From Candidatus Tantalella remota (GTDB taxonomy: Bacteria; Omnitrophota; Gorgyraeia; Tantalellales; Tantalellaceae), in contig JAVCCB010000050.1 of assembly GCA_030765685.1 (NCBI GenBank), positions 11,735 through 75,734 of the forward strand: a stretch of 64,000 bases of DNA, in the 5' to 3' direction. Made by a program: the position numbers. Shown piece by piece: positions 60,001 to 64,000 of the stretch (position 1 is its first letter; each line of letters opens with the position of its first letter).

Positions 60001-63000
60001 GGATGAAGACAACAATACATTTATTGTTACGAACCAATATAAAGTAACACGTGGGGTAACAAAGATCCCAGATATGGTTCTTTTGATTAACGGTATTCCT
60101 GTTATTGTTGGTGAGTTCAAAACCCCTGTAAGACCAGCAATATCATGGTTGGATGGGGCTGTGCAGATACATGATGACTATGAGAATAGCATTCCTGAGC
60201 TTTTTGTACCAAACATATTTTCTTTCTCCAGCGAGGGAAAGACTTTTAGATACGGGTCAATCCGTATGCCACTCGAGATATGGGGACCATGGAGGGATGA
60301 ATTAAAAGTCAAAGATGATGAAGTAGCAGGATTAAGGGAAGTAGAAGTAGCAGTTGAAGCATTGCTTAACCCTACAGTCGTCATGGATATTTTAGAAAAC
60401 TTTACTATCTTTGCTACAGATAGTAAAAATCAACGAATTAAAGTAATAGCTCGATATCAACAATATGAAGGTGCTAATCTAATATTGGAAAGAGTCAAAC
60501 AAGGGGTTGTTAAGAAAGGACTTATATGGCATTTTCAGGGTTCAGGAAAATCGCTTCTTATGGTTTTTGTGGCACAAAAATTGCGACATGTTCCTGAGTT
60601 AAAAAGCCCCACGGTTGTTATTATCGTTGATCGCGTTGATCTTGATACGCAGATAACCGCAACATTTAACGCATGTGATGTTCCAAATATTGTAGCTACT
60701 GAGAGCAGAGACGAGCTGGAAAGATTATTGAAACAAGATACACGAAAAATACTTATTACCACGATGCATAAGTTTGCTGAAGCAGAAGGGGTGTTGAACG
60801 ACCGAGAAAACATCATAGCACTTGTCGATGAAGCCCACAGAACTCAAGAGGGTGACTTAGGGAGAAAGTTGCGAGATGCGTTACCAAATGCATTTTTCTT
60901 TGGTCTTACAGGGACCCCGATAAATAAAAGAGACAGAAACACATTCCGCACATTCAGTGCCGAAGAGGATTTGAGCGGTTATTTATCGCGTTATTCGTTT
61001 GAAGAATCCATAAGAGATAAAGCTACACTACCGCTGCACTTTGAACCTCGGCTGTTAGACGTTCATGTTGATAAAGAGCTTCTTGATGCTGGATTTGATG
61101 CTATGACCGAAACATTGACAGAAGAACAACGAGCACAGTTAGTTCAGAAAGCTGGTCAGATGTCAGCGTTTCTAAAAGCACCAGATAGAGTAAGGAAGAT
61201 AGTTGAAGATATTGTTAGCCATTTTAGAGAGAAAATTGAACCACAAGGATTAAAAGCACAGATTGTATGTCCAGACAGGTTTGCCTGTGATCAATATAAA
61301 ACAATATTAGATGAGATTGTTTCTCCAGACGAAAGTGTAGTTGTGATTTCAATCAATAACACGGATACCGATGAGTTTAAGAGGAAATATCGCATGGAGA
61401 GGGATCAACAAGAAAAGGTTTTAGATCGTTTTCGAGATCCCATTGATCCACTAAAATTTGTTATTGTGACATCAAAGCTCCTAACAGGATTCGATGCACC
61501 TATATTGCAAGCCATGTATCTAGATAAATCGATGAAGGACCACAACCTCTTACAAGCAGTTTGCAGGACTAATAGGGTATATAAAGAGAAGTCACATGGT
61601 CTAATTGTTGATTATTATGGTGTTTTTGATAATGTTGCAAAGGCGTTAGAGTTTGACGAGAAATCAGTCCGACACGTGATTACTAATATTGGTAGCTTGA
61701 AAGATCAATTTAAACAAGCGGTTGCTTTATGTCTTATGCATTTCCCAAATGTGGATAGAGGGATTGAGGGATACGAGGGTCTTTTGTTGGCGCAAGAATG
61801 TGTAAATACAAATACTAAAAGAGACGATTTTGCTAAAGATTATAGCTATTTGTCAAAGTTGTGGGAAGCACTATCTCCTGATTCCATATTAAATGACTAT
61901 GAGAAAGATTATCGATGGCTTTCAAAAATATATGAATCTGTCAAACCGACGTCGGGGGATACGGGTCGCTTGTTGTGGCATGCTTTAGGGGCACAAACTA
62001 TAAAGTTGATACATGAACATATTCATGTTGAAAAAATAAGCGATGATTTAGAAAAAATTATTCTTGATGCTGATGTTATTGAAGATCTAATGAAAGCAAA
62101 AGACAGTACAAAGACAAAACTTATTGAAATAGAAATAGTTAATCGATTGCGTAAAAACAAAGGTAAACCAAAATTTCAGGAACTTGGAAAACGACTTGAA
62201 GATTTACGGGATAAAGCTGAACGGGGGTTGATTAATAGCGTTGATTTTCTAAAATCTTTAATCGAATTAGCGAAAGATGTTGTTGCTGCTGAGAAGGAAA
62301 TTGAGGTAGAGCATGAGAAAAAGGGAGCAAAGTCAGTGCTTACAGAATTGTTCTTAGAAGTTCGCACTGAACAGACCCCAGCAATTGTAGAGAGAATCAT
62401 TAATGATATAGATGAAATTGTTAAAGTTGTTCGCTTCCCCGGTTGGCAATCAACCGCATCTGGTGAGCGCGAAGTAAAAAAAGCTATTCGTAAGACTTTG
62501 CTTAAATATAAACTTCACACCGACCAAGACCTTTTTGACAGGGCCTACGGATATATTCGGGAGTATTATTGAGATGATTCCAGTATTCTTCTGTCATATC
62601 TGTGACGCTGGTTGTAATTGTAATTTAGCAGTTAAATTATCACAGAAATTATCTAGAGATCTTGAGGGTATTGAAGCATTTGTAGCTTGTCAGGACGAAA
62701 GATGGAACACTGCTGCTGATTTAAACACATCTGTAGATCAATCATATGTTTTTATCCCGATAATTGGAGATTCTTTTAAAGAGAGCAATAATTGTACTTC
62801 TGAATTAGATCGAGCCAAAGAAAGAAAACAATCCGAGAAATTCCCCCTCATCATCCCAGTAAAAAATAATTGCTCTGACGCACTAATGGTGGACTTGAGT
62901 TTTACGATAGATCAGCAGCATGAGTCTGGTGACAAATGGATCGATTTTTCTTTTGATTCAGAATTTGATTCCAAGTATGAGGATCTTTATAGAAGAATTC

Positions 63001-64000
63001 ATTATTGGTTAGTTGACAATGACCTTGTTGCGAATAAGGATTTTCACAAAGATCGTAAAGTTATTGATGTCATTTTAAACGAAGATGATCCAACGGCCAG
63101 TCAGATCAAGATAGCGATAGATTATTGTCGCAAAGGAAAAGAATATAGTTTATATATTTTAAAAAATCTTTCAAATCCTAAATGGCTCACGCACCTATAT
63201 GCGGCAGGTTTTTTTGCTTGTAATCTTGCACCAGTAGAATCTGAGAAAAATGAAGGATTTTATAATATTCCATTGTGGGCAGCAGTTCTATATTTAGAAA
63301 AAGTCTCGATGAACCCTAATACTAAAGACACCGAAAGAATACTCGACATTATTCGAAAAGTATCAAGACCAATCCAACCTGCCGTAAAACAAGATAATTG
63401 GCGAACATGGCAATCATTTGTAAAAATAATGGCTAATCTTCCCGGTAAAGTAATTGGCTATAATGATATAGAGCTAATTTCAGATTGGTTAAATAGCAAG
63501 TTTGATATATCAATGGTTGTTTTGGAGATAGGGAATACGCTTTTACCAAAGTTATTGGATGAAGCAAACACAAAATCAGATTCAAAAAAAATAGTACGGA
63601 TGGTTAAAGTTTTATTGGATTCTGTAAAGATAGAGAGCAGACACGGGATGTTATCGCATAGTTTTCAGGAAATGTTTAAAAATAATTCAGGGTTACTTGG
63701 AGAAAAATGTGCTCCAAACGTTTTGAGCATATTGAAAGATAAAACAGATAATATTGTCGCTGAAAAAGATGATAGCTATTGCTATGTTTGGAGGCCTGCG
63801 ATTGAACATCACGAGCAAAATATTTCTACAGACGAGTATAGGCATATTTTGATTTCAGGTTTTAGAGATATTTGTCTAAGTTTTGCATCAACTCATGATG
63901 CTACTGCATATCTGGAAAAATTATTTCTCTCCCAGAAATACATAATAAAGCGTGTTATGTTGTTTGTCTTGAACCAATTATTTGATAAGTATGTGAATGT

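Follow-up and report, generated by a model that had tools for sequence, protein, structure and literature searches.

A 64,000-nucleotide stretch of DNA from Candidatus Tantalella remota (Omnitrophota; contig JAVCCB010000050.1, positions 11,735 to 75,734), called the window below, ends inside a gene that almost certainly encodes the N-terminal part of a TIR-linker-sensor protein. In this protein a TIR domain replaces the SIR2 domain of the defence protein Dsr1 (positions 1-266 of the Dsr1 profile). The gene, 62574..64000 on the + strand, extends the Dsr1/Avs7-type defence family to Omnitrophota. The members of this phylum are ultra-small bacteria, and next to nothing is known of their phages. 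The main value of the locus lies in two things, a natural effector swap and the coupling of the module to a restriction-modification (RM) operon.

The reading frame itself is the place to start. The ATG at 62574-62576 opens 475 stop-free codons up to the window end at 64000, as seen in the translation of 62574-64000. An exhaustive search matched this frame to 846 cluster representatives at E<=1e-3, 31 of them at E<=1e-30. The nearest full-length relatives are 1,092-1,101 aa long, align from residue 1 and are 46-68% identical across all 473-475 residues. Because so many representatives match and the full-length relatives align throughout, comparison of sequences identifies the frame as a real gene and not a chance open reading frame (ORF). 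The complete product would be roughly 1,095 residues long. The window covers the first 43% of it, and the remaining 3' 57% of the gene lies beyond 64000. It must be noted that a single-sequence search of a 5.8-billion-protein index returned one partial homologue only; profile and exhaustive searches found the rest.

Directly upstream lies hsdR (59663..62572, + strand, 969 aa, GenBank MDP8299191.1), recognised by Pfam HSDR_N, SWI2_SNF2 and T1R_D3-like matches and by PADLOC REase_I at 1e-133. Its TGA stop is 62570-62572, and the single spacer base 62573 separates it from the ATG of the TIR-sensor gene. A GGGAG at 62559-62563, 10 nt 5' of that ATG, sits within the end of hsdR. Scans of 54500-64000 found 34 promoter sites against 35.5 in shuffled sequence and 6 terminator sites against 5.4, so there is no excess of either and nothing argues for a separate transcription unit. 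Given the 1-nt gap, the GGGAG inside hsdR and the lack of promoter or terminator excess, the TIR-sensor gene ends a type I RM operon as a translationally coupled cistron, which goes beyond mere neighbourhood. The preliminary description of this DNA had already placed the start 1 nt past the hsdR stop and called the frame 3'-partial. Our coordinates agree, with no stop up to the window end, and the three peptide strings it quoted (IPVFFCHI, LAVKLSQKLSRDLEGIEAFVA and SYVFIPIIGDSFKESNNCTSELDRA) are all found in the translation.

The N-terminus of the window protein (residues 1-125, 62574..62948, + strand) is a true TIR domain of the TIR_2 type. This identity rests on the Pfam match, the profile search against PDB and the AlphaFold2 (AF2) and Foldseek comparison, together with a conserved catalytic glutamate. 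Strands at residues 2-7, 33-37, 59-64 and 92-97 alternate with helices at 14-29, 47-55, 72-87 and 102-107. The Pfam TIR_2 model (PF13676) passes marginally on residues 19-137, with 29.1 bits against a cutoff of 28, and the PF01582 match falls under its cutoff. Homologues score higher with TIR_2, at 35.2 bits in L001 (which also matches PF01582 with 26 bits) and 30.0-34.2 bits in P0006/L012. We aligned residues 1-150 of 11 TIR-type family members (A2) and used the alignment as a profile against PDB sequences, where it hits essentially TIR domains only: flax L6 at 9e-8, Cat1 at 1.4e-6 and AbTIR at 8e-6, followed by RPS4, ROQ1 and RPP1. A broader family profile (A3) gives AbTIR at 1.6e-10 and Cat1 at 2.5e-10. 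The AF2 model of residues 1-150 has the alternating beta/alpha layout, with a pLDDT of 88.7 and a pTM of 0.87. When this model was compared with PDB by Foldseek, almost all of the top 50 matches were TIR domains (TMq 0.5-0.7, with probability 1.00 for the top 31), and they include the NADases RUN1, RPP1, AbTIR, SARM1 and SPARTA.

The preliminary description proposed a TIR domain here from the pattern of strands and helices, and the TIR_2 score above cutoff, the PDB profile, the models and the conserved E77 all bear this out. It suggested a Foldseek comparison of the N-terminus and a look for the catalytic glutamate. The first returned TIR folds and the second found E77. It also named a flavodoxin-like fold without the TIR glutamate as the result that would count against it; the fold is that of a TIR domain and the glutamate is retained. 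Its narrower DUF1863-type (DUF1863/ThsB_TIR) label did not hold, and we dropped a DUF1863/ThsB-type assignment of this TIR, for PF13676 fits better.

The rest of the window protein is a linker and the start of a sensor. The linker (residues 126-170, 62949..63083, + strand) consists of a long helix at 128-148 and a junction helix at 156-168 in the AF2 models, with DFHKDRKVIDVIL at the junction helix. Its limits come from these models and from the start of the PADLOC alignment, and the effector-swap boundary described below lies within it. What follows (residues 171-475, 63084..63998, + strand) is the first ~305 residues of an all-alpha solenoid, delimited by the PADLOC Dsr1 match and the AF2 model of P0006. 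PADLOC Dsr1 (PDLC04166) aligns its profile positions 267-617 of 1227 with residues 133-473 at E=6e-36. Full-length relatives are found in two GTDB genomes, an Omnitrophota metagenome-assembled genome (MAG) with 66% identity (1,094 aa) and a Planctomycetia MAG with 53% (1,099 aa). Both relatives match the Dsr1 model up to profile position 1226 of 1227, L002 at E=1.4e-146 and L001 at 6.8e-153; the matches begin at position 267 or 310, and both proteins have a TIR at the N-terminus. A further close TIR-bearing homologue has the accession MDO8663071.1. P0006, the closest full-length homologue with 68% identity to the window part, gives an AF2 model with a pLDDT of 86.9 that has the TIR at 1-125, the helix at 128-148 and an all-alpha region at 157-1092. 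By these alignments the large domain after the TIR is almost certainly a Dsr1/Avs7-type alpha-solenoid sensor.

The preliminary description saw no recognisable similarity in this large domain. The Dsr1 match, and the full-length homologues at ~1e-150, overturn that. It had called the gene a plausible new single-protein defence gene; a single-chain candidate beside RM genes it is, but it is not new, because the sensor belongs to the known Dsr1 family. Some searches with the sensor were negative. By sequence it has no PDB match with either the full-length homologue or the family profile as query. Foldseek with the full-length model returned generic HEAT/ARM solenoids only (TM <0.35), the highest being Avs4 from the Avs4-portal complex, and so this fold search gave no confirmation of the Avs7 link. 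The NCBIfam scan gave no match for the window fragment. Neither the window protein nor the full-length TIR-type homologues match SIR2 or SIR2_2. As for a STAND NTPase (NB-ARC/NACHT-like), Pfam shows TIR alone in the full-length homologues, and the AF2 model of P0006 passes directly from TIR to linker helix to solenoid. An NLR/Avs assignment was dropped when no NTPase domain was found. A separate observation concerns the bSEFIR model of PADLOC, whose positions 157-322 of 412 (the non-SEFIR part) weakly match residues 119-314 (62928-63515) at E=5.5e-4. The same weak match of the linker and first sensor repeats is seen in L002. bSEFIR proteins may thus have the start of the sensor in common with this family.

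The best evidence for what the TIR does comes from metagenomic versions of the same RM cassette. Relative to the window, hsdM1 is 87% identical in these cassettes, hsdM2 77-81% and hsdS ~31%, and hsdR is 83% identical in L005 and 81% in L010. Low identity of hsdS is expected for a specificity subunit. The position after hsdR is filled by a TIR-sensor fusion in L003, L004, L005, L012 and L013, and by a SIR2_2 gene plus sensor in L010 and L015. The TIR-sensor fusion of orthologous cassettes is 68% identical to that of the window, and the sensor of the SIR2 version (L010) is 50% identical. Fused SIR2-Dsr1 proteins of 1,227 aa share 41% identity with the sensor part. Since both domains occupy the same place in one RM cassette, this comparison argues that the TIR would do the same job as SIR2, that is, serve as an equivalent NAD+-cleaving effector. 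One mobile type I RM cassette that carries either a fused TIR or a separate SIR2 before the same sensor amounts to a natural swap experiment. It supports TIR and SIR2 as interchangeable NAD+-directed effectors. The effector exchange point is upstream of the junction helix at residues 156-168. Split SIR2 proteins have a similar helix at their extreme C-terminus, and fused SIR2-Dsr1 has a similar segment, a likeness judged by eye only; in the split SIR2 proteins the linker went undetected by blastp.

These cassettes have another recurrent gene. An HNH_5 (PF14279) gene of ~337 aa lies 11-23 nt 3' of the sensor gene with TIR and SIR2 versions alike (L003 10151-11164, L004 6454-7467 and L012 5971-6981; L010 10795-11811 and L015 11792-12448). 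The HNH_5 proteins of the TIR and SIR2 cassettes are 30% identical. The window ends before the gene downstream of the TIR-sensor gene and the downstream context is taken from homologues, by analogy with which an HNH_5 gene is predicted just past the window end.

We surveyed the sensor family more widely. The top 150 representatives comprise 108 'sensor-only' proteins of ~930 aa and 42 with an N-terminal extension. Among the latter, 21 have TIR_2, 12 SIR2_2 and 2 PIN_12, and 6/42 also match ThsB_TIR. At the four loci checked (L010 7021-10784, L015, L011 6545-10268 and L092 8028-11769) the 'sensor-only' protein is the second gene of a split system, in which a SIR2_2 gene (~300-330 aa; 327-333 aa in L010 and L011) overlaps the start of the sensor gene. 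An annotated example is found on the Vibrio coralliilyticus plasmid pOCN014 (WP_040122581.1 / WP_040122582.1). In 74 metagenomic loci (A5) the region before the sensor is SIR2_2 in 21, a pPIWI-associated-type nuclease in 7, TIR in 3 and without a Pfam match in 43. All 3 TIR cases fall in the subclade of the window protein. The TIR is thus a recurrent but minority partner of the Dsr1/Avs7-type sensor. A search of 50,697 phage records gave no homologue, and one of 72,556 plasmids gave none of the TIR type.

Other N-terminal types are worth recording. One recurrent type without a Pfam match carries the motif YLLAHIAREIExGIRDIFAS, and sensor proteins with a ~170-aa N-terminal region lacking a Pfam match are P0064, P0073, P0095, P0106 and P0145. 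pP_pnuc_1, a predicted pPIWI-associated nuclease, is matched in seven sensor loci. These N-terminal or upstream regions, with pP_pnuc_1 or without a Pfam match, are uncharacterised effectors of the same sensor family. A remote TIR-sensor relative, P0025 (1,155 aa; L007 / L008 7130-11468), has an overlapping SIR2_2 gene (293 aa) just upstream, and this module lies 3' of a PLD-SNF2 helicase and an MmeI-like methylase. Its combination of SIR2 and TIR is a Thoeris-like domain pairing.

The catalytic residues can be read from conservation and alignment. The predicted catalytic glutamate, E77 (codon GAA, 62802..62804, + strand), lies on helix alphaC in the motif NNCTSEL. It is invariant in 11/11 close TIR-type members and 24/24 wider ones, and aligns with the Glu of WCLMEL in L6 and with E74 of Cat1. 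Cat1 E74 is an active-site residue required by experiment, and the NADase pocket of Cat1 is lined by S7, H8, N9, N10, D33, S68 and E74 (PMC12162218). At the aligned pocket positions the window protein has C7, H8, A38, S71 and E77, where H8 and S71 align with Cat1 H8 and S68. In the canonical pocket set, betaA supplies the Ser of its 'SH', an Asp follows betaB, the BB-loop has a Gly, and an aromatic residue stands four positions ahead of the Glu. Remoter TIR-sensor relatives retain this set (FISH..., D after betaB, BB-loop G, F/W). TIR NADase sites arise between two TIR domains upon oligomerisation (PMC12162218). We lean towards NAD+ cleavage by an assembled TIR pair around E77 as the predicted activity, with confidence lowered because pocket residues are derived in the window protein.

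The known biology of the sensor suggests how such a protein would work. DSR1 depletes NAD+ during infection (Garb et al., 10.1101/2021.12.14.472415). According to Lee et al. (Nature 2026, PMC13581612; preprint PMC12803255), the sensors of Dsr1 and of the STAND protein Avs7 are homologous, and 9,097 proteins carry the Dsr1/Avs7 sensor with diverse effectors. The same paper reports that the trigger of SeAvs7 and EcDsr1 is the phage major capsid protein and that effector mutation abolishes toxicity. When capsid protein binds to SeAvs7, the two lobes of its sensor clamp together and autoinhibition is relieved (PMC13581612). TIR is not named in the text of Lee et al. that was read.

We argue that the window gene probably encodes a single-chain anti-phage receptor of ~1,095 residues, made of a TIR, a linker and a bilobed alpha-solenoid sensor, that acts as follows. 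In the uninfected cell the sensor would keep the TIR monomeric and inactive. Upon infection it would bind a newly made phage structural protein, with the major capsid protein the foremost candidate by analogy with EcDsr1 and SeAvs7. The sensor lobes would clamp together and autoinhibition would be lifted. TIRs of different chains could then associate and form a composite active site around E77 that cleaves NAD+. Loss of NAD+ would starve the phage, and the cell would be arrested or killed. Acting late, the protein would be a second line against phages that escape the co-transcribed restriction enzyme.

Several points weigh against this reading. The capsid trigger is known for EcDsr1 and SeAvs7, both distant from the window sensor, and since the tested proteins are distant relatives we propose the major capsid protein as the trigger only tentatively. 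The distance also shows in the NCBIfam EcDsr1 equivalog NF041818, which scores 39.7 bits on homologue P0002 against a cutoff of 1400. We know of no evidence of oligomerisation for any non-STAND Dsr1-type protein. Four active-site-lining positions are derived in the window subclade (S->C7, D->A38, BB-loop G->W44 and F/W->N73). Because C7, A38, W44 and N73 replace canonical residues, the chemistry of this TIR may differ from that of canonical NADases. The P0025 locus keeps a separate SIR2_2, which means the TIR is not always the sole NADase candidate. Lastly, 43% only of the gene is inside the window, and a 15-billion-protein collection contains neither the full-length product nor the exact 475-aa partial. 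Seven complete proteins encoded on this contig, which is 78,845 bp long and carries MDP8299170.1 to MDP8299191.1, do occur there as exact matches with consecutive GenBank numbers. Because the product is missing while these seven are present, the TIR-sensor gene may be disrupted downstream, annotated as a pseudogene or left unannotated in the record.

One can imagine, then, that the gene is a decayed or truncated copy, by pseudogene formation or by an assembly break, with no function in this genome. That the collection holds seven proteins of the contig and no 100% match or exact partial of this ORF is what one would expect in such a case. However, the 475 codons are stop-free, keep all family-invariant residues and are 68% identical to intact homologues, and the operon upstream is intact. 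The word index is sparse and also missed homologues of 66-68% identity, and the contig runs 14.8 kb longer than the window. We consider a decayed copy unlikely.

A different line of reasoning starts from the RM genes. In close relatives the module lies directly 3' of RM genes on the same strand in 7/7 independent contexts, which represent at least 5 RM cassette types. The spacing is mostly a 1-nt gap after hsdR or a 4-nt overlap with hsdS. The modules that overlap hsdS come from two further kinds of type I cassette, in which AbiE or RhuM genes are found as well, and other partners are an MmeI-like system and a type III system nearby. After de-replication of the wider family at 80% identity, upstream sequence of 5 kb or more was present for 20 clusters. 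Same-strand Hsd genes end just before the module in 6/20 of them. As a control, Hsd genes occur in 6/17 upstream and 1/10 downstream 5-kb flanks. The fused SIR2 form L009 likewise ends a type I RM operon. Defence genes embedded in type I RM operons are a known theme, with PrrC and TgvAB as examples (Payne et al. 2024; PMC11411939; 10.1101/2024.01.29.577857). We found no statement in the literature of Dsr1 embedded in such operons.

This association could mean that the protein guards the restriction enzyme, like PrrC in EcoprrI. Its trigger would be inhibition or bypass of the type I enzyme, as by an anti-restriction protein, and it would not recognise a phage structural protein on its own. The positions of the module in close relatives and in the wider family, including the flank control, agree with a guard, as does the fact that PrrC is almost exclusively embedded in type I RM operons (10.1101/2024.01.29.577857). 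But the partner RM systems are unrelated (type I with different HsdR, type III, MmeI-like), which speaks against a specific protein contact. No Hsd gene lies upstream in ~70% of the wider family, and copies of the sensor module on Bacillus and Vibrio plasmids stand alone. EcDsr1 by itself suffices in a heterologous host and is capsid-triggered (PMC13581612). A guard is quite unlikely on this evidence. Because the RM partners vary and the Bacillus and Vibrio copies stand alone, the data favour co-regulated layering over a specific guard interaction. Dsr1-type modules are often the 3'-terminal cistron of RM operons, and we see here a probable case of layered defence, with restriction first and abortive NAD+ depletion later. 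A stronger version would make these modules a dedicated back-up layer in RM operons, co-translated and maybe coupled, with the remodelled TIR pocket maybe serving another product or substrate. This we think rather improbable.

The remodelled pocket also raises the question whether the TIR is an NADase at all. It could be an oligomerisation scaffold or act on another substrate such as nucleic acids, an activity reported for some plant TIRs. The replacement of S7, D38, G44 and F/W73 in the window subclade would fit this. Plant L6/L7 TIRs are the top PDB sequence matches, and for one set of them the solved structure has dsDNA bound. Against it, E77, H8 and S71 are kept, and E77 is invariant down to 19%-identical relatives. 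A pure scaffold is hard to reconcile with a glutamate that is invariant in such remote relatives. There is no other effector domain within the 1,095 aa. An altered TIR is thus very unlikely.

It is most improbable that the TIR makes a cyclic ADP-ribose-type messenger for a separate effector in Thoeris fashion, for instance for the downstream HNH_5 protein: the ThsB_TIR matches among the 42 extended relatives, the HNH_5 genes close behind the sensor gene in L003, L004 and L012 (with the 30%-identical one in the split SIR2 cassettes L010 and L015) and the one relative that pairs SIR2_2 with a TIR-sensor gene like ThsA/ThsB fit such signalling, but there is no HNH_5 downstream in L001, L002 and L006, HNH_5 is also found beside the SIR2 version, where a TIR signal would not exist, none of SLOG, SAVED, Macro or any further nucleotide-sensing domain turned up among the neighbours, and the swap with SIR2, the NAD+ depleter in DSR1, better fits direct depletion.

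The gene sits on a defence island inserted beside ssrA, from 43410 to beyond 64000. The left border is the tmRNA gene ssrA (43028..43409, + strand; ARAGORN, and Rfam RF00023 at 167 bits), preceded by SmpB (42386-42841). The 3' end of ssrA is not repeated anywhere in the window, which puts the right border past 64000. After the tmRNA gene come a PriCT/RepB-type primase (43869-44792), a DUF3987 gene (44747-46030) and two paralogous serine recombinases, or resolvases (51021-51746 and 52355-52903), that are 78% identical over 300 nt. They are followed by a 606-aa type IV restriction enzyme of the GmrSD type (53025-54845, + strand; Pfam GmrSD_N/C, PADLOC HEC-06 at 5e-87), then a 61-aa excisionase-type helix-turn-helix protein (54852-55037, + strand; TIGR01764 at 36.9 bits, with a weak match to MADS Mad1). 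Downstream of these two genes the type I RM operon, all on the + strand, begins with hsdM1 (55038-56531, 497 aa), hsdM2 (56528-58012, 494 aa), hsdS (58009-59211) and a 152-aa ORF with no significant family match (59208-59666), and ends with hsdR and the TIR-sensor gene. Every junction from hsdM1 through hsdM2, hsdS and the 152-aa ORF to hsdR overlaps by 4 nt.

Some of these genes are unusual in their own right. The tandem hsdM paralogues are ~55% identical and the pair is kept in cassettes L005, L010, L013 and L015. Type I RM systems normally carry one hsdM, and a heteromeric methylase from the two is possible. The slot of the 152-aa ORF holds an unrelated 280-aa ORF in L010 and nothing in L005, so the hsdS-hsdR interval seems to be a place where embedded genes vary. 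The protein collection lacks the exact 152-aa product, and GenBank may use another start. Outside the island, the window begins with giant ORFs at 189-3470 (1,093 aa), 3900-13214 (3,104 aa) and 13400-22582 (3,060 aa). Two of the three were scanned, those of 1,093 and 3,104 aa, and have no Pfam domain at E<=1e-5. These two are orphan giant proteins of the Omnitrophota MAG. An ORF of 1,521 aa at 23090-27655 has a phosphoglucomutase core.

It remains to place the gene among known systems. Membership of Thoeris or CBASS was considered and dropped, for partner genes were not found. No ThsA-type effector (SIR2-SLOG, TM-Macro) is adjacent: upstream is hsdR, and downstream in homologues is HNH_5 or an unannotated ORF. 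PrrC, TgvAB and HEC genes in type I RM operons are similar in that a defence gene is co-transcribed with type I RM in a layered immunity (PMC11411939; 10.1101/2024.01.29.577857). The window gene is unrelated to the PrrC type in sequence and lies at the 3' end of the operon, not between hsd genes. The TIR NADases that assembly activates (Cat1, AbTIR, SARM1, plant TNLs and SPARTA TIR-APAZ) share the fold and the catalytic Glu on alphaC. Their activation modules are CARF, NB-ARC or Argonaute, whereas the window protein has an alpha-solenoid sensor, and its subclade is derived at the four positions that line the active site.

The systems that share the sensor are closer. As described, Avs7 has a bilobed, capsid-binding sensor homologous to that of Dsr1, with many interchangeable N-terminal effectors (PMC13581612). 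The window family has no Pfam STAND NTPase between effector and sensor, and Avs7 is compared here by description only. The split SIR2 + sensor systems (L010, L015, L011; pOCN014) have the same sensor, and L010 and L015 the same position in the RM cassette. Their effector is a separate overlapping SIR2_2 gene, in contrast to the fused TIR of the window. Dsr1 (defence-associated sirtuin 1; Gao 2020, Garb 2022; PDLC04166) has the same ~960-residue C-terminal sensor, with full-length matches at E ~1e-150, and the same single-chain layout of effector, linker and sensor. EcDsr1 works alone in a heterologous host, according to Lee et al. (PMC13581612), and the fused SIR2 form L009 shares the 3'-terminal position in a type I RM operon. 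What sets the window protein apart is a 125-aa TIR in place of the defining SIR2, a score far under the cutoff of NF041818 and a host that is an Omnitrophota MAG. The TIR-sensor gene is a recognisable variant of the known Dsr1 system and not a new kind of system.

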